NCBI RefSeq assembly: GCF_030013205.1
Contig: NZ_CP122648.1
Length of the DNA: 64,000 nt
Strand: one strand, 5' to 3'
Origin: Escherichia coli
GTDB lineage: Bacteria > Pseudomonadota > Gammaproteobacteria > Enterobacterales > Enterobacteriaceae
Position numbers and translations under genes: made by a program. Below the pieces are notes generated by a model, which was not told where the DNA came from, did no database searches, and saw nothing but the letters and a program-made list of their open reading frames with translations. Numbering within the stretch: the first letter of the stretch is position 1; every line of letters begins with the position of its first letter. Of the stretch, positions 2,951 to 63,790 are shown one piece after another.

Positions 2951-4240
2951 ATGACGCGCCGTGCTATCGGGGTGAGTGAAAGACCGCCACTTTTACAGAC
3001 AATCCCGCTTAGTTTGCAACATTTGTTCGCCATGTTTGGTGCAACCGTCCTGGTGCCCGTCTTATTTCATATTAACCCGGCGACTGTACTGTTATTTAAC
3101 GGTATAGGAACACTGCTGTATCTCTTCATCTGTAAAGGGAAAATTCCGGCTTATCTTGGTTCCAGCTTTGCCTTTATTTCACCGGTATTGTTACTGTTGC
3201 CGTTAGGGTATGAAGTCGCGCTGGGCGGCTTTATTATGTGCGGCGTGCTGTTCTGCCTGGTTTCTTTTATCGTGAAGAAAGCGGGGACCGGCTGGCTGGA
3301 CGTGCTGTTTCCACCTGCGGCAATGGGCGCAATCGTTGCCGTCATCGGTCTGGAGCTGGCGGGCGTAGCTGCCGGTATGGCGGGTTTACTCCCGGCTGAA
3401 GGGCAAACGCCAGACTCCAAAACCATCATCATCTCCATTACCACCCTGGCGGTTACGGTTTTAGGTTCCGTGCTGTTTCGTGGTTTCCTGGCAATTATCC
3501 CGATTTTAATTGGCGTGCTGGTGGGCTACGCGCTCTCTTTCGCAATGGGAATTGTCGATACCACGCCGATTATTAATGCTCACTGGTTTGCGCTGCCAAC
3601 TCTCTATACGCCGCGCTTCGAGTGGTTTGCCATTCTGACTATTCTACCAGCGGCGTTAGTGGTTATTGCCGAACACGTAGGGCACCTGGTGGTAACGGCT
3701 AATATCGTCAAAAAAGATCTGCTGCGCGATCCAGGTCTGCACCGTTCGATGTTTGCTAACGGCTTGTCGACCGTGATCTCCGGCTTCTTTGGCTCCACGC
3801 CAAATACCACCTACGGGGAAAACATTGGCGTGATGGCGATCACCCGTGTTTACAGTACCTGGGTTATCGGCGGGGCGGCGATTTTCGCTATCCTGCTTTC
3901 CTGCGTCGGTAAACTGGCTGCTGCTATCCAGATGATCCCATTGCCGGTGATGGGCGGCGTTTCGCTGCTGCTTTATGGTGTCATCGGTGCTTCCGGTATT
4001 CGTGTTTTGATCGAATCGAAAGTGGATTACAACAAAGCACAGAACCTGATCCTGACTTCCGTGATTTTGATCATCGGTGTCAGTGGCGCGAAGGTAAACA
4101 TCGGCGCGGCGGAGCTGAAAGGTATGGCGCTGGCGACCATCGTCGGTATCGGCTTAAGTTTGATCTTCAAACTGATTAGTGTGCTGCGCCCTGAAGAAGT
4201 GGTGCTGGACGCAGAAGACGCGGATATAACAGACAAATAA
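2951..4240 (+). CDS. uraA: uracil:proton symporter (NCS2 family)
   Basis: 429 aa starting [21 protein letters not shown]; multi-TM; RBS at 2937..2944. Confidence 0.95.
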
Positions 4241-32236: not shown

Positions 32237-32611
<375 letters not shown>

Positions 32612-32973
32612 TTATGAGAATAAATACTCATTTAAGAGTGAAAACATTTTGCCTGCAAATGATTATCAGGAAATATAACATTATCGAAGTATTCAAATTA
32701 ACAACTATTAAATAATATTAAACATTTTTAACGTAAACATTAAGAATATTCATCTTGTTATCTGTCTGTATTTTAACCAGAATTAAATCAGTATTAGATG
32801 CCGTATGAATATCTCGAAATGTTGCTGTGTATCACATACAAATCATCACCGCAGGACCATAGTATTTACATAAGGTTTGTCCCCCGGAGGTAGTCATCGC
32901 AGCAATCGAGTAAATTAGCTTCACCACGGTATATTGTTTCCGTAGAATACCCATAATTATAAGAGAGGTTGTT

Positions 32974-33033
32974 ATGATTGAACGTGAACTGGGGAACTGG
33001 AAAGACTTTATCGAAGTTATGCTTCGTAAGTAA
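32974..33033 (+). CDS. ypfM: small protein YpfM (19 aa)
   Basis: ATG ATT GAA CGT GAA CTG GGG AAC TGG AAA GAC TTT ATC GAA GTT ATG CTT CGT AAG TAA = MIERELGNWKDFIEVMLRK; strong RBS aagagagg 6 nt upstream. Confidence 0.7.
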   Translation: MIERELGNWKDFIEVMLRK

Positions 33034-45472: not shown

Positions 45473-47752
45473 ATGGATGACCAGTTAAAACAAAGTGCAC
45501 TTGATTTCCATGAATTTCCAGTTCCAGGGAAAATCCAGGTTTCTCCAACCAAGCCTCTGGCAACGCAGCGCGATCTGGCGCTGGCCTACTCACCAGGCGT
45601 TGCCGCACCTTGTCTTGAAATCGAAAAAGACCCGTTAAAAGCCTACAAATATACCGCGCGTGGTAACCTGGTGGCGGTGATCTCTAACGGTACGGCAGTG
45701 CTGGGGTTAGGCAACATTGGCGCGCTGGCAGGCAAACCGGTGATGGAAGGCAAGGGCGTTCTGTTTAAGAAATTCGCCGGGATTGATGTATTTGACATTG
45801 AAGTTGATGAACTCGACCCGGACAAATTTATTGAAGTCGTCGCCGCGCTTGAACCGACCTTCGGCGGCATCAACCTCGAAGACATTAAAGCGCCAGAATG
45901 TTTCTATATTGAACAGAAACTGCGCGAGCGGATGAATATTCCGGTATTCCACGACGATCAGCACGGCACGGCAATCATCAGCACTGCCGCCATCCTCAAC
46001 GGTTTGCGCGTGGTGGAGAAAAACATCTCTGACGTGCGAATGGTGGTTTCCGGCGCGGGTGCCGCAGCAATCGCCTGTATGAACCTGCTGGTAGCGCTGG
46101 GTCTGCAAAAACATAACATCGTGGTTTGCGATTCAAAAGGCGTTATCTATCAGGGCCGTGAGCCAAACATGGCGGAAACCAAAGCCGCATATGCGGTGGT
46201 GGATGACGGCAAACGTACCCTCGATGATGTGATTGAAGGCGCGGATATTTTCCTGGGATGTTCCGGCCCGAAAGTGCTGACCCAGGAAATGGTGAAGAAA
46301 ATGGCCCGTGCGCCAATGATCCTGGCGCTGGCGAACCCGGAACCGGAAATTCTGCCGCCGCTGGCGAAAGAAGTGCGTCCGGATGCCATCATCTGTACCG
46401 GCCGTTCCGACTACCCGAACCAGGTGAACAACGTTCTTTGCTTCCCGTTCATCTTCCGTGGCGCGCTGGACGTTGGCGCAACCGCCATCAACGAAGAGAT
46501 GAAACTGGCGGCGGTACGCGCGATTGCAGAACTGGCCCATGCGGAACAGAGTGAAGTGGTGGCTTCAGCTTATGGCGATCAGGATCTGAGCTTTGGTCCG
46601 GAATACATCATTCCAAAACCGTTTGATCCGCGCTTGATCGTTAAGATCGCTCCTGCGGTCGCTAAAGCAGCGATGGAGTCCGGCGTGGCGACGCGTCCGA
46701 TTGCTGATTTCGACGTCTACATCGACAAGCTGACGGAGTTCGTTTACAAAACCAACCTGTTTATGAAGCCGATTTTTTCCCAGGCTCGCAAAGCGCCGAA
46801 GCGCGTCGTTCTGCCGGAAGGTGAAGAGGCGCGCGTTCTGCATGCCACTCAGGAACTGGTAACGCTGGGGCTGGCGAAACCGATCCTTATCGGTCGTCCG
46901 AATGTGATCGAAATGCGCATTCAGAAACTGGGCTTGCAGATCAAAGCGGGCGTTGATTTTGAGATCGTCAATAACGAATCCGATCCGCGCTTTAAGGAGT
47001 ACTGGACCGAATACTTCCAGATCATGAAGCGTCGCGGTGTCACTCAGGAACAGGCGCAGCGTGCATTGATCAGTAACCCGACAGTGATCGGCGCAATCAT
47101 GGTTCAGCGTGGCGAAGCCGATGCAATGATCTGCGGTACGGTGGGCGATTATCATGAACATTTTAGCGTGGTGAAAAATGTCTTTGGTTATCGCGATGGC
47201 GTTCACACCGCAGGTGCCATGAACGCGCTGCTGCTGCCGAGTGGTAACACCTTTATTGCCGATACCTACGTCAATGACGAACCAGACGCAGAAGAGCTGG
47301 CGGAGATCACCTTGATGGCGGCAGAAACTGTTCGTCGTTTTGGTATTGAGCCGCGTGTGGCTCTGTTGTCGCACTCCAACTTTGGTTCTTCTGACTGCCC
47401 GTCGTCGAGCAAAATGCGTCAGGCGCTGGAACTGGTCAGGGAACGTGCACCAGAACTGATGATTGATGGTGAAATGCACGGCGATGCAGCGCTGGTGGAA
47501 GCGATTCGCAATGACCGTATGCCGGACAGCCCTTTGAAAGGTTCCGCTAATATTCTGGTGATGCCGAACATGGAAGCTGCCCGCATTAGTTACAACTTAT
47601 TGCGCGTTTCCAGCTCGGAAGGTGTGACTGTCGGCCCGGTGCTGATGGGTGTGGCGAAACCGGTTCACGTGTTAACGCCGATCGCATCGGTACGTCGTAT
47701 CGTCAACATGGTGGCGCTGGCTGTGGTTGAAGCGCAAACCCAACCGCTGTAA
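45473..47752 (+). CDS. maeB: NADP-dependent malic enzyme
   Basis: 759 aa; malic enzyme domain plus C-terminal phosphotransacetylase-like domain. Confidence 0.95.
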
Positions 47753-47769
47753 TTCATTCTTAACTCTCA

Positions 47770-47804
47770 CGCTTACCCTGAATATTCAGGGTAAGCGGTT
47801 TTCC
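47770..47804 (+). terminator. rho-independent terminator after maeB
   Basis: Hairpin cgcttaccctga-atat-tcagggtaagcg followed by gttttcc. Confidence 0.7.
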
Positions 47805-48044
47805 TGAAATATATTAGTAAAGCTTATTACTGAGTTTACGAATAATAAAAAAAGCAGTATATGAAATATCTCGATATTATTTTATTTATATTCATGCGTC
47901 GCATATGAAAGTTTATTCATAACAGTAAATATCTCTCCATTCTTAGTGATCTACCTCACCTTTTAAACGTACTTGCCGAATTTTGTTATTTACTCTGACG
48001 AAAAATTGTCACGATACACGCAAGTTTTTCACAGGCGGCGACTC

Positions 48045-48380
48045 ATGGATAAAGAACGCATCATTCAGGAATTTGTGCCCGGTAAACAAGTCACGCTGGC
48101 GCATCTCATCGCGCATCCCGGCGAGGAACTGGCGAAGAAAATCGGCGTTCCGGATGCTGGCGCAATCGGCATTATGACGCTAACTCCAGGCGAAACGGCG
48201 ATGATCGCCGGTGATTTAGCGCTGAAAGCCGCTGATGTGCATATCGGTTTTCTCGACCGCTTCAGCGGTGCATTGGTGATTTATGGCTCGGTGGGCGCAG
48301 TAGAAGAAGCATTATCACAAACCGTCAGCGGTTTAGGTCGCTTATTAAATTATACGCTTTGTGAAATGACCAAAAGTTAA
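48045..48380 (+). CDS. eutS: BMC shell protein EutS
   Basis: 111 aa starting [22 protein letters not shown]; first gene of eut operon. Confidence 0.9.
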
Positions 48381-48392
48381 TACGAGGCATTC

Positions 48393-48872
48393 ATGAAACG
48401 AATTGCGTTTGTGGGTACCGTCGGGGCAGGAAAAACAACGTTATTTAATGCGTTGCAGGGGAATTATACCCTCGCCAGAAAAACACAGGCCGTGGAATTT
48501 AATGATAAAGGCGATATTGATACGCCGGGTGAATATTTTAGCCATCCCCGCTGGTATCACGCCTTAATTACCACGCTACAGGATGTGGACATGCTGATCT
48601 ATGTCCACGGCGCGAATGACCCGGAAAGTCGGTTGCCTGCCGGGTTGCTGGATATTGGCGTCAGCAAACGGCAAATCGCCGTCATCAGTAAAACGGACAT
48701 GCCAGATGCTGACGTCGCCGCAACGCGAAAGTTATTGCTTGAGACGGGCTTCGAAGAGCCGATTTTCGAGCTAAACAGCCACGACCCGCAAAGCGTGCAG
48801 CAACTGGTGGATTATCTGGCATCTCTCACCAAACAGGAGGAAGCAGGTGAAAAAACTCATCACAGCGAATGA
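48393..48872 (+). CDS. eutP: ethanolamine utilisation GTPase/acetate-kinase-like protein EutP
   Basis: 159 aa, P-loop GTVGAGKTT. Confidence 0.9.
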   Translation: MKRIAFVGTVGAGKTTLFNALQGNYTLARKTQAVEFNDKGDIDTPGEYFSHPRWYHALITTLQDVDMLIYVHGANDPESRLPAGLLDIGVSKRQIAVISKTDMPDADVAATRKLLLETGFEEPIFELNSHDPQSVQQLVDYLASLTKQEEAGEKTHHSE

Positions 48873-49548
48873 TATTCGCGAAGCACACGCGCGCGGCGAA
48901 CAGGCAATGTCCGTGGTTCTGCGCGCCAGCATTATTACTCCGGAAGCCCGTGAAGTGGCGGATCTGTTGGGTTTTACCATCACCGAATGTGATGAATCGA
49001 CTGCGGTAACGACGTCCGTTCCCGCCAGCGTGCCAGCCGATAAAACCGAAAGCCAGCGCATCCGCGAAACCATCATCGCCCAGCTACCGGAAGGCCAGTT
49101 TACCGAAAGTCTGGTCGCGCAGCTGATGGAAAAAGTGATGAAGGAAAAACAGTTACTGGAGCAGGGTGCAATGCAGCCGAGTTTCAAATCGGTGACCGGC
49201 AAAGGCGGCATCAAAGTTATTGATGGCAGCAGCGTCAAGTTTGGTCGTTTCGACGGCGCACAGCCACACTGCGTCGGATTAACGGATCTGGTCACCGGAG
49301 ACGACGGCAGCAGCATGGCCGCTGGTTTTATGCAGTGGGAGAACGCCTTCTTCCCGTGGACCCTGAACTATGACGAAATCGATATGGTACTGGAAGGGGA
49401 ACTGCACGTTCGCCACGAAGGCGAAACCATGATCGCCAAAGCAGGCGACGTGATGTTTATCCCGAAAGGCTCCAGCATCGAATTTGGTACGACATCCAGC
49501 GTGAAATTCCTGTATGTCGCCTGGCCGGCTAACTGGCAATCCCTATGA
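48847..49548 (+). CDS. eutQ: ethanolamine utilisation cupin-like protein EutQ
   Basis: 233 aa; overlaps eutP 3' end. Confidence 0.88.
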   Translation: MKKLITANDIREAHARGEQAMSVVLRASIITPEAREVADLLGFTITECDESTAVTTSVPASVPADKTESQRIRETIIAQLPEGQFTESLVAQLMEKVMKEKQLLEQGAMQPSFKSVTGKGGIKVIDGSSVKFGRFDGAQPHCVGLTDLVTGDDGSSMAAGFMQWENAFFPWTLNYDEIDMVLEGELHVRHEGETMIAKAGDVMFIPKGSSIEFGTTSSVKFLYVAWPANWQSL

Positions 49549-55695: not shown

Positions 55696-56922
55696 ATGGG
55701 AATTAACGAAATCATCATGTACATCATGATGTTCTTTATGCTGATAGCTGCCGTAGACAGGATCCTGTCGCAGTTCGGCGGTTCTGCTCGTTTCCTCGGT
55801 AAGTTCGGTAAAAGTATCGAAGGATCCGGCGGTCAGTTCGAAGAAGGCTTTATGGCAATGGGCGCACTGGGCCTGGCGATGGTCGGTATGACCGCGCTGG
55901 CACCGGTACTGGCCCACGTACTCGGACCGGTGATTATCCCGGTTTACGAAATGCTCGGCGCAAACCCGTCAATGTTCGCCGGAACACTGCTGGCGTGCGA
56001 TATGGGCGGCTTCTTCCTCGCCAAAGAGCTGGCGGGCGGCGACGTAGCAGCGTGGCTATACTCTGGGTTAATTCTCGGGTCGATGATGGGGCCAACGATT
56101 GTGTTTTCCATTCCGGTGGCGCTCGGCATTATCGAACCTTCTGACCGTCGTTATCTGGCGCTCGGCGTGCTGGCGGGCATTGTGACCATTCCGATTGGCT
56201 GTATTGCCGGTGGTCTGGTGGCTATGTATTCCGGTGTGCAGATCAACGGTCAGCCAGTGGAATTCACCTTTGCCCTGATCCTGATGAACATGATCCCGGT
56301 ACTTATCGTCGCGGTACTGGTGGCGCTGGGGCTGAAATTCATCCCGGAAAAAATGATCAACGGCTTCCAGATCTTCGCCAAATTCCTCGTTGCATTGATC
56401 ACCCTCGGTCTTGCCGCTGCGGTAGTGAAATTCCTGCTCGGTTGGGAACTGATCCCCGGTCTGGATCCGATCTTCATGGCTCCAGGCGACAAACCCGGTG
56501 AAGTGATGCGCGCCATTGAAGTTATCGGTTCTATCTCCTGTGTTCTGTTAGGGGCGTACCCGATGGTATTGCTGCTGACCCGCTGGTTTGAAAAACCGCT
56601 GATGAGCGTCGGTAAAGTGCTGAATATGAACAATATCGCGGCAGCTGGCATGGTGGCAACGCTTGCCAACAACATCCCAATGTTTGGCATGATGAAGCAG
56701 ATGGATACCCGCGGCAAAGTCATCAACTGCGCCTTCGCCGTTTCCGCTGCTTTCGCCCTGGGTGACCACTTAGGCTTCGCCGCTGCCAACATGAACGCCA
56801 TGATTTTCCCGATGATTGTCGGCAAGTTGATCGGCGGCGTAACGGCGATTGGCGTGGCGATGATGCTGGTGCCAAAAGAAGACGCGACCGCGGCCAAAAC
56901 CGAAGCGGAGGCACAATCGTGA
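55696..56922 (+). CDS. eutH: ethanolamine permease EutH
   Basis: 408 aa polytopic membrane protein. Confidence 0.92.
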   Translation: MGINEIIMYIMMFFMLIAAVDRILSQFGGSARFLGKFGKSIEGSGGQFEEGFMAMGALGLAMVGMTALAPVLAHVLGPVIIPVYEMLGANPSMFAGTLLACDMGGFFLAKELAGGDVAAWLYSGLILGSMMGPTIVFSIPVALGIIEPSDRRYLALGVLAGIVTIPIGCIAGGLVAMYSGVQINGQPVEFTFALILMNMIPVLIVAVLVALGLKFIPEKMINGFQIFAKFLVALITLGLAAAVVKFLLGWELIPGLDPIFMAPGDKPGEVMRAIEVIGSISCVLLGAYPMVLLLTRWFEKPLMSVGKVLNMNNIAAAGMVATLANNIPMFGMMKQMDTRGKVINCAFAVSAAFALGDHLGFAAANMNAMIFPMIVGKLIGGVTAIGVAMMLVPKEDATAAKTEAEAQS

Positions 56923-58322
56923 ACACTCGCCAGCTACTGAGCGTCGGTATCGATATCGGCACCACCACCACCCAGGTGATCTTCTCCCACCTGGAGCTGG
57001 TTAACCGTGCGGCGGTGTCGCAGGTGCCGCGCTACGAATTCATCAAACGCGAAATTAGCTGGCAAAGCCCGGTGTTCTTTACCCCTGTCGATAAACAGGG
57101 TGGTTTAAAAGAAGCGGAACTGAAATCGCTGATTTTAGAGCAATATCAGGCTGCGGGCATTGCGCCGGAAAGCGTTGATTCTGGTGCCATCATCATCACC
57201 GGTGAAAGCGCGAAAACCCGCAACGCTCGCCCGGCGGTGATGACGCTCTCCCAGTCGCTGGGCGATTTTGTCGTCGCCAGCGCCGGGCCGCATCTCGAAT
57301 CCGTGATCGCCGGTCACGGTGCCGGGGCGCAAACCCTTTCTGAACAACGGCTGTGTCGGGTACTGAATATCGACATCGGCGGTGGCACCGCGAACTACGC
57401 CCTGTTCGATGCCGGAAAAATCAGCGGCACTGCCTGCCTCAACGTCGGTGGTCGCCTGCTGGAAACTGACAGCCAGGGGCGCGTGGTTTACGCTCATAAA
57501 CCGGGGCAGATGATTGTGGATGAGTGCTTCGGTGCAGGCACTGACGCCCGTTCGCTGACCGGCGCGCAGCTGGTGCAGGTTACCCGCCGGATGGCAGAGC
57601 TGATTGTCGAAGTGATTGACGGAACGCTCTCGCCGCTCGCGCAGGCATTGATGCAAACCGGTTTGCTGCCCGCAGGTGTTACGCCCGAAATCATTACGCT
57701 TTCTGGCGGCGTGGGCGAATGTTATCGCCACCAGCCCGCCGACCCGTTCTGTTTTGCCGATATCGGCCCGCTTCTGGCAACGGCGCTGCATGACCATCCG
57801 CGCCTGCGTGAGATGAACGTGCAGTTTCCGGCGCAAACCGTACGCGCCACGGTGATTGGCGCGGGTGCACATACCCTTTCGCTCTCTGGCAGCACAATCT
57901 GGCTGGAGGGCGTACAACTGCCGCTGCGCAATTTGCCGGTGGCGATCCCAATTGATGAAACGGATCTGGTGAGTGCCTGGCAACAGGCGCTGATTCAGCT
58001 GGATCTTGATCCCAATTCTGACGCGTACGTGCTGGCGCTTCCCGCCTCGCTGCCTGTGCGTTACGCCGCGGTACTGACGGTCATCAACGCGCTGGTCGAT
58101 TTCGTCGCGCGTTTTCCGAATCCGCATCCCCTGCTGGTGGTGGCCGGGCAGGACTTTGGTAAAGCTCTGGGCATGTTGTTGCGCCCACAGCTACAACAAC
58201 TCCCGTTGGCAGTCATTGACGAAGTGATTGTCCGCGCGGGGGACTATATCGACATTGGTACGCCTCTTTTTGGCGGATCGGTTGTGCCGGTGACGGTGAA
58301 ATCACTCGCATTTCCTTCCTGA
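56919..58322 (+). CDS. eutA: ethanolamine ammonia-lyase reactivase EutA
   Basis: 467 aa. Confidence 0.92.
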   Translation: MNTRQLLSVGIDIGTTTTQVIFSHLELVNRAAVSQVPRYEFIKREISWQSPVFFTPVDKQGGLKEAELKSLILEQYQAAGIAPESVDSGAIIITGESAKTRNARPAVMTLSQSLGDFVVASAGPHLESVIAGHGAGAQTLSEQRLCRVLNIDIGGGTANYALFDAGKISGTACLNVGGRLLETDSQGRVVYAHKPGQMIVDECFGAGTDARSLTGAQLVQVTRRMAELIVEVIDGTLSPLAQALMQTGLLPAGVTPEIITLSGGVGECYRHQPADPFCFADIGPLLATALHDHPRLREMNVQFPAQTVRATVIGAGAHTLSLSGSTIWLEGVQLPLRNLPVAIPIDETDLVSAWQQALIQLDLDPNSDAYVLALPASLPVRYAAVLTVINALVDFVARFPNPHPLLVVAGQDFGKALGMLLRPQLQQLPLAVIDEVIVRAGDYIDIGTPLFGGSVVPVTVKSLAFPS

Positions 58323-58333
58323 GGGAACGACTT

Positions 58334-59695
58334 ATGAAACTAAAGACCACATTGTTCGGCAATGTATATCAGTTTAAGGATGTAAAAGAGGTGCTGGCTA
58401 AAGCCAACGAACTGCGTTCTGGGGATGTGCTGGCAGGCGTTGCAGCGGCAAGTTCACAGGAGCGCGTGGCGGCAAAGCAGGTGTTGTCGGAAATGACCGT
58501 AGCGGACATCCGCAATAATCCGGTGATTGCCTATGAAGATGACTGCGTGACGCGGCTGATTCAGGACGATGTTAACGAAACGGCCTACAACCAGATTAAA
58601 AACTGGAGCATCAGCGAACTGCGTGAGTATGTGCTGAGCGATGAAACCAGCGTGGACGACATTGCCTTTACCCGCAAAGGGCTGACCTCGGAAGTGGTCG
58701 CGGCGGTAGCGAAGATTTGCTCCAACGCGGACCTGATCTACGGCGCGAAGAAAATACCGGTGATCAAAAAGGCCAATACCACCATCGGTATTCCGGGCAC
58801 CTTCAGCGCCCGCTTGCAGCCAAACGACACCCGTGACGACGTGCAAAGTATCGCCGCGCAAATCTACGAAGGGCTTTCCTTCGGGGTGGGCGATGCGGTG
58901 ATCGGCGTTAACCCGGTGACTGACGACGTGGAAAACTTAAGCCGCGTGTTGGACACCATCTATGGCGTGATCGACAAATTCAACATTCCGACCCAGGGCT
59001 GCGTGCTGGCGCACGTCACCACCCAGATTGAAGCGATCCGTCGCGGCGCGCCTGGCGGACTGATTTTCCAGAGTATCTGTGGCAGCGAAAAAGGGCTGAA
59101 AGAGTTTGGCGTGGAACTGGCGATGCTCGACGAAGCGCGCGCAGTGGGCGCAGAGTTCAACCGTATCGCCGGGGAAAACTGCCTCTACTTCGAAACCGGA
59201 CAAGGCTCTGCGCTGTCCGCTGGCGCGAACTTCGGCGCAGACCAGGTGACGATGGAAGCGCGTAACTATGGGCTGGCGCGTCATTACGATCCGTTTATCG
59301 TCAACACCGTGGTCGGCTTTATTGGGCCGGAGTATCTCTACAACGACCGCCAGATTATCCGTGCGGGCTTAGAAGATCACTTTATGGGTAAGCTGAGCGG
59401 CATCTCTATGGGCTGTGACTGCTGCTACACCAACCACGCTGACGCTGACCAGAACCTCAACGAAAACCTGATGATCCTGCTCGCCACCGCAGGCTGCAAC
59501 TACATCATGGGGATGCCGCTGGGCGATGACATCATGCTCAACTATCAGACCACCGCATTCCACGACACTGCCACTGTGCGTCAGTTACTCAACCTGCGCC
59601 CGTCACCGGAGTTTGAACGCTGGCTGGAAAGCATGGGCATTATGGCAAACGGTCGCCTGACCAAACGGGCGGGCGATCCGTCACTGTTCTTCTGA
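58334..59695 (+). CDS. eutB: ethanolamine ammonia-lyase large subunit
   Basis: 453 aa. Confidence 0.95.
   Translation: MKLKTTLFGNVYQFKDVKEVLAKANELRSGDVLAGVAAASSQERVAAKQVLSEMTVADIRNNPVIAYEDDCVTRLIQDDVNETAYNQIKNWSISELREYVLSDETSVDDIAFTRKGLTSEVVAAVAKICSNADLIYGAKKIPVIKKANTTIGIPGTFSARLQPNDTRDDVQSIAAQIYEGLSFGVGDAVIGVNPVTDDVENLSRVLDTIYGVIDKFNIPTQGCVLAHVTTQIEAIRRGAPGGLIFQSICGSEKGLKEFGVELAMLDEARAVGAEFNRIAGENCLYFETGQGSALSAGANFGADQVTMEARNYGLARHYDPFIVNTVVGFIGPEYLYNDRQIIRAGLEDHFMGKLSGISMGCDCCYTNHADADQNLNENLMILLATAGCNYIMGMPLGDDIMLNYQTTAFHDTATVRQLLNLRPSPEFERWLESMGIMANGRLTKRAGDPSLFF

Positions 59696-61830: not shown

Positions 61831-63790
<1,960 letters not shown>

Follow-up and report, generated by a model that had tools for sequence, protein, structure and literature searches.

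The window, the whole 64-kb stretch of DNA analysed here, is part of the Escherichia coli chromosome and is colinear with strain CFSAN018748. Its maeB gene (45473–47752, plus strand), near which tktB and talA both lie on the minus strand, ends at 47752 and is followed by a 292-nt intergenic region (47753–48044) that leads to eutS, whose plus-strand start codon is the ATG at 48045 and whose product matches the NCBIfam model NF012012 with 247 bits. From 48045 an unbroken run of open reading frames continues through eutR and makes up the 17-gene operon eutSPQTDMNEJGHABCLKR; the RefSeq annotation of the nearest genome gives eutSPQT, and likewise pta, eutM and eutN. The final gene of the operon, eutR (61831–62904, plus strand), matches the EutR equivalog model NF007522 with 789.9 bits for a cutoff of 319, and the cognate AraC/XylS regulator is thus encoded within the locus. 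Within the operon eutA directly adjoins eutB (56919–59695), without the CPZ-55 prophage, and the operon appears intact; in K-12 MG1655/BW25113 the cryptic prophage CPZ-55 splits the eut operon (PMC11334477).

The intergenic region opens with the intrinsic terminator of maeB (47770–47803, plus strand), formed by a perfect 14+14 hairpin, CGCTTACCCTGAAT/ATTCAGGGTAAGCG, at 47770–47797 and then GTTTTCC. The hairpin is an inverted repeat with 100% complementarity, is kept in six Escherichia lineages, and was the only convincing element in a search of the intergenic region for direct and inverted repeats.

Enteric bacteria, including EHEC and Salmonella, gain an advantage in growth and signalling from using ethanolamine in the gut, and the promoter called P1 is the switch for the entire 17-gene microcompartment operon. 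The site of its regulator EutR was reportedly defined by Tsoy in 2009 and Luzader in 2013. P1, upstream of eutS, drives the whole set of eut genes and is switched on by EutR, which requires two ligands, ethanolamine and adenosylcobalamin (AdoCbl); EutR binding to P1 was demonstrated in EHEC by EMSA and DNase I footprinting, and the footprinted site, predicted by comparative genomics, lies just upstream of the −35 (PMC5821096). Induction of eut by ethanolamine and AdoCbl has been reported for EHEC and Salmonella (PMC5821096, PMC4643982). In Salmonella, EutR ChIP enriches the eutS promoter (PMC4643982), eut expression is barely detectable without EutR (PMC10433801), and ArcA and Fnr mutants display altered eut expression on arrays (PMC3075218).

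The first-pass annotation of this DNA had proposed that the main eut promoter, with EutR and CRP input, lies between the maeB terminator and eutS. The published work places P1 and its EutR control upstream of eutS, and the maeB–eutS region is very probably the known eut P1, the main promoter of the operon. An EutR-activated P1 with a CRP site is already described in the literature, and what we report is nothing new in kind. The outcome is a map of this switch in window coordinates, comprising the CRP site, a predicted EutR box, an extended −10 and a predicted start.

Base composition of the intergenic region

The interval 47805–48044 had been described as strongly AT-rich, which the counts bear out: its G+C content is 30.8%, compared with 53.6% window-wide, and just 0.4% of all 240-nt windows reach so low a value. 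One other comparable spot exists in the 64 kb, at 32479–32939. The full intergenic region (47753–48044) has 32.9% G+C and is the second lowest of the 23 intergenic regions of at least 60 nt, which average 47.3%.

The low G+C content is concentrated in a distal segment of 136 bp (47800–47935), where it falls to 23.5%, and which includes the run that had been named as conspicuous, ataataaaaaaagcag...tattcat, confirmed at 47842–47895. The proximal part (47936–48044), with 40.4% G+C, is ordinary for intergenic DNA, and the conserved core that it contains (47943–48015) has about 40%.

Elsewhere in the window, the yffB–ypfM intergenic region (32596–32975), upstream of the tiny annotated gene ypfM, is also AT-rich, with 31.1% G+C over 380 nt and a minimum of 24.6% in the 240-nt window at 32549.

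Conservation upstream of eutS

The upstream DNA of 63 loci coding for EutS relatives, drawn from a one-genome-per-species collection, was compared. In 18 Enterobacteriaceae, a near-invariant block corresponds to 47944–48015 of the window, and the DNA upstream of this block is not alignable. Among six Escherichia lineages, invariant columns make up 27% of the distal segment (47800–47935), 90% of the core (47936–48015) and 100% of both an 18-bp box (47973–47990) and a downstream hexamer (48010–48015); the box is equally invariant in the 18 Enterobacteriaceae. Across about 5,400 complete E. coli genomes, the proximal 109 nt show at least 95% identity in 5,396 of 5,398 records, and the distal 136 nt just 90–95% identity in 4,182 of 5,305. 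None of the 18 differences between this allele and the K-12-type allele falls within the CRP site, the box or the −10.

A comparison with Salmonella eut P1, suggested earlier as a check, gave the same picture, the core being essentially the same. Salmonella Typhimurium and EHEC share with the window the locus, the gene order and the position of eutR as the last gene of the operon, and only a few positions within 47944–48015 distinguish the cores of Salmonella arizonae and diarizonae from that of the window. Nothing essential separates the Salmonella promoter from this one, the differences being a rare distal allele here and unrelated, longer upstream DNA there.

The arrangement of the core extends well beyond these genera: in 50 distinct eutS upstream regions, the box is followed after 19–20 nt by a hexamer of the form xAxxxT. 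In Telmatospirillum (alpha), Iodobacter (beta), Pseudomonas and Ventosimonas, the box, as TTGCCGAWWTTTGWTA, is the sole upstream element kept, and it stands upstream of eutS without a CRP site. Among distant loci, a tblastn search of fetched flanks found eutR within 3 kb in Wohlfahrtiimonas and Oxalobacteraceae only; the Oxalobacteraceae locus carries no box, and box and eutR were seen together in Wohlfahrtiimonas. There (loci L057, 515–1829, and L054), eutR is divergent from the eut genes instead of last in the operon, the box lies within the shared eutR–eut intergenic region, with eutS following as the third gene.

The upstream region of Entomohabitans teleogrylli contains two direct boxes exactly 100 nt apart (L045, 2837–2854 and 2937–2954; 31.7 and 31.4 bits), whereas a single one is present in all other loci with a strong box.

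CRP site and predicted EutR operator

The upstream edge of the core is formed by the CRP site ttAGTGAtctaccTCACCttt (47943–47963), whose half-sites, AGTGA-tctacc-TCACC at 47945–47960, agree with TGTGA-N6-TCACA at 8 of 10 bases and have their symmetry centre at 47952.5. The proposed CRP input is supported, as the K-12 sequence upstream of eutS, identical letter for letter, is a CRP site with an inferred Kd of 9.0 nM by in vitro Footprint-seq (PMC12871828), and eutS is among the new CRP targets found by genomic SELEX (PMC3105977). The motif GTGA-N6-TCAC occurs four times in the 64 kb. In all box-bearing Enterobacterales loci, from Escherichia to Morganella, GTGA-N6-TCA(C/A) is fixed at 27 nt upstream of the start of the box. 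Outside the eut locus, a near-perfect CRP-type palindrome, GTGATCTTGATCAC, was noticed at 22140–22153, within the 3' end of the hyfA coding sequence and just upstream of hyfB.

The box itself, TTGCCGAATTTTGTTATT (47973–47990, plus strand), is a predicted operator for an AraC/XylS-family regulator, delineated by conservation and by a position weight matrix (PWM). It is the single match in the window to the PWM built from the boxes, with a score of 30.5 bits where the best shuffle reached 20.6, and a PWM search for a second EutR-type box returned none, either in the intergenic region or in the whole 64 kb. We infer that the box is the EutR operator, which is consistent with the review that places the footprinted site just upstream of the −35 (PMC5821096).

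Predicted promoter elements and transcription start

Downstream of the box, conservation points to a predicted extended −10, TG-T-CACGAT (48007–48015, plus strand; hexamer 48010–48015), without a recognisable −35. The hexamer CACGAT agrees with TATAAT at three of six positions. Its variants across lineages are CACGAT, CACCAT, CAGCAT, TAGGAT, TAGCAT, TAAGAT and TAATGT, and in every lineage the hexamer found 19–20 nt past the box has A as its second and T as its sixth base; in Escherichia a TGT precedes it. The 18 species compared agree without exception at T48006, G48008, C48010, A48011, C48012, A48014 and T48015. Promoter prediction, which had been recommended for locating the promoter, failed to do so: a scan for consensus sigma-70 promoters of this allele and of the K-12 allele found no site. 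The lack of a −35 and of any sigma-70 match is expected of an activator-dependent promoter.

The position of the −10 hexamer predicts that P1 transcription starts at 48021–48024 (plus strand), at about A48022. We found no mapped eutS start in the literature, and the available part of a Cappable-seq table holds no entry near the eutS locus. With a start at about 48022, the box would extend from −49 to −32 and the CRP site would be centred at about −69.5.

A start near 47998 would instead follow from TGT-TATTTA (47984–47992), which overlaps the box and is a formal match to an extended −10 (TGnTATTTA). This start would put the box at about −25 to −8, that is, in the spacer and −10, and the CRP centre near −45.5. 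Under class I/II activation, neither the −10 for an AraC-family activator nor −45.5 for CRP would be a standard position. The hexamer is moreover not kept as a −10 in other Enterobacterales, Buttiauxella having TATTCC and Morganella TATCCC, whereas A2 and T6 of the downstream hexamer are constant in all lineages. In the CsrA gel shifts, the Salmonella eutS RNA does begin at the equivalent of 47998, as judged from the primer (PMC10433801), but the same work gives its limits relative to the start codon (−47 to +48) and does not present it as a mapped 5' end; the EutR site is, in addition, placed upstream of the −35 by the review (PMC5821096). We thus regard a start near 47998 as distinctly improbable and retain 48022 as the predicted start.

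From 48022, the predicted leader is short (about 23 nt, 48022–48044, plus strand) and carries the Shine-Dalgarno sequence AGGCGG at 48033–48038, 6 nt before the ATG at 48045. Compared with shuffles, it is predicted to be unstructured (z = +1.4). In Enterococcus and Listeria, eut control involves EutV/ANTAR and a B12 riboswitch RNA (PMC5821096), and a control at the RNA level of this Firmicute-like kind, through an adenosylcobalamin riboswitch or ANTAR-type antitermination, could be imagined here. However, a search of Rfam 15 at E ≤ 10 revealed no cobalamin riboswitch or other family, the leader would span at most about 23–47 nt and is predicted to be unstructured, and the operon encodes EutR, all of which makes such control barely conceivable. 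At the sensitivity of Rfam 15 and of the folding test, a riboswitch/ANTAR eut leader is refuted.

The Salmonella eutS leader RNA (−47 to +48) is a binding target of CsrA, whose effect is positive (PMC10433801). The Salmonella leader has a GGA in its Shine-Dalgarno region (GGAGAC), whereas in the Escherichia leader, AGGCGGCGAC (48022–48047), the first GGA overlaps the start codon (ATGGAT). Judging by these sequences, CsrA control may differ between Escherichia and Salmonella.

Proposed mechanism and relationship to known promoters

We propose that the conserved core of about 75 bp (47943–48015) does the regulating. cAMP-CRP would bind AGTGA-N6-TCACC, centred at 47952.5, and RNA polymerase would use the weak extended −10 TGT-CACGAT (48007–48015) with no usable −35. 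Such a promoter should stay silent until EutR, liganded by ethanolamine and adenosylcobalamin, recruits the polymerase from a position overlapping the −35. CRP at about −69.5 would add a class-I-type contact and thereby catabolite control. A box at −49 to −32 with CRP at about −69.5 would correspond to the standard layout of an AraC-family activator combined with CRP.

Promoters of this type are well represented by rhaBAD and araBAD, in which the activator abuts or overlaps a −35 without consensus, CRP binds adjacent upstream, and induction occurs with the pathway substrate only. The predicted geometry of eut P1 resembles that of rhaBAD (RhaS/CRP) and araBAD (AraC/CRP), with the activator site at or over the −35 and CRP immediately upstream. 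It differs in having only one detectable 18-bp box, without a second direct-repeat half-site, so that CRP would sit closer, at a predicted −69.5 or so instead of about −92.5 as in the rhaBAD/araBAD type, and also in the two ligands of EutR, ethanolamine and AdoCbl (PMC5821096).

Class I CRP promoters, with CRP near −61.5, −69.5 or −71.5, offer a second comparison. The eut site is good (8 of 10 bases, Kd about 9 nM) and would lie upstream of the polymerase on the appropriate face, although its exact distance here hangs on the predicted start. CRP alone is not expected to activate P1, since Salmonella lacking EutR shows barely detectable expression (PMC10433801). The eut P1 promoter belongs to the class that combines an AraC-family activator with CRP, not to the Firmicute riboswitch/ANTAR type.

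The distal AT-rich segment

The distal segment (47800–47935) is Escherichia-specific and poorly conserved, and contains no assignable element. In Citrobacter, Klebsiella, Pseudocitrobacter and Yokenella, the maeB–eutS spacer is mostly about 153–160 nt long and consists of the terminator followed directly by the block alignable with 47944–48015; the extra ~130 nt of Escherichia, including the run at 47842–47895, have no counterpart there. Within Escherichia, E. coli SCPM-O-B-8794 (locus L006) carries a deletion of about 56 nt (~47866–47921) that spares the core with its CRP site, box and −10. The AT-rich runs had been taken as a sign of the promoter: the promoter does lie in the interval, but the runs mark its poorly conserved distal part and not the core.

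Since the segment is absent from sister genera with the same core and turns over fast within Escherichia, it is most likely a weakly constrained spacer between the maeB terminator and the core, probably with no sequence-specific function. The most economical reading of its AT-richness is a lack of coding constraint. On the same comparative grounds, we infer that the segment would be dispensable for the promoter.

Spacer remodelling was also seen elsewhere. In Salmonella arizonae and diarizonae (L007/L008) the core is preceded by unrelated DNA for over 320 nt, within which the end of maeB is not reached, and in two Citrobacter (L016 and L026) insertions have produced spacers of 370 and 284 nt, compared with about 159 nt. 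The DNA upstream of the core has thus been independently remodelled in Salmonella and Citrobacter.

Promoters silenced by H-NS share with this region a very low G+C content just upstream of an operon under tight regulation, and the segment could, as the first-pass annotation had suggested as a possibility, be a nucleation site for H-NS or another nucleoid protein that silences P1 until EutR and CRP counteract it. Its 23.5% G+C is among the most AT-rich DNA in the window, it lies immediately upstream of an activator-dependent promoter, and the sigma-S holoenzyme gives a genomic-SELEX peak somewhere in the maeB–eutS spacer, as if this DNA were 'sticky' for promoter-like recognition (PMC5493296). 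Against this, the H-NS high-affinity motif TCGATAAATT is at chance level, with 70 matches window-wide versus about 51 ± 6 expected and, in this segment, none closer than two mismatches, and the AT-rich part is not conserved along with the promoter, being missing in Citrobacter and Klebsiella with the same core and partly deleted in one Escherichia lineage. This loss in relatives implies that any H-NS role would be dispensable and lineage-specific. We consider nucleation and silencing by H-NS or a similar protein doubtful, and a silencing role confined to certain lineages somewhere between doubtful and unlikely.

The sigma-S SELEX peak nevertheless suggests that the distal part may not be inert and that some protein–DNA affinity is possible. 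The segment could accordingly be pictured as a lineage-specific regulatory add-on, for instance a landing pad for H-NS or sigma-S polymerase, which we find unlikely. If it were one, basal silencing of eut would be set differently in Escherichia than in Citrobacter, Klebsiella and Salmonella, and the alleles of the segment, of which this strain has a rare one, would tune ethanolamine use among E. coli lineages. The K-12-type allele (L002, ~4108–4113, equivalent to 47860–47865) reads CTATATAATAT, a perfect TATAAT, where the present strain has ATATGAAATAT. This TATAAT may be related to the sigma-S SELEX peak in the K-12 spacer; the promoter scan found no −35 partner for it.

The presence of an unannotated small gene or small RNA within the segment is very unlikely. 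Two open reading frames are available, one of 15 codons, MKYLDIILFIFMRRI (47862–47909, plus strand), and one of 22 codons (47836–47904, minus strand), but none of the small open reading frames in the segment is conserved; the ATG of the 15-codon frame is absent from the K-12-type allele of most E. coli, and its region is deleted in one lineage. For an RNA, the best hint is a weak Rfam match to the Listeria rli38 (26 bits, E = 0.31), which is well short of the gathering score of 49 bits. The Rfam search at E ≤ 10 yielded chance matches only (rli38, petD intron and psRNA6), far below gathering scores, and a search for structured RNA on both strands of the segment gave folding no better than shuffles (z = −0.35 and −0.01). 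No promoter-like site for such a gene or RNA was found by the scan.

In this map the conspicuous AT-rich run and the conserved control element are different stretches of DNA, a distinction that matters for the design of reporter fusions and whenever AT-richness is read as function.

The intergenic allele of this strain (47753–48044) is rare, reaching at least 99% identity in just 18 of 5,409 E. coli records, and eutQ (48847–49548) is 94.9% identical to that of a K-12-type strain, compared with 97–99% for the neighbouring genes. The rare allele and the divergent eutQ hint at local recombination or an unusual lineage.
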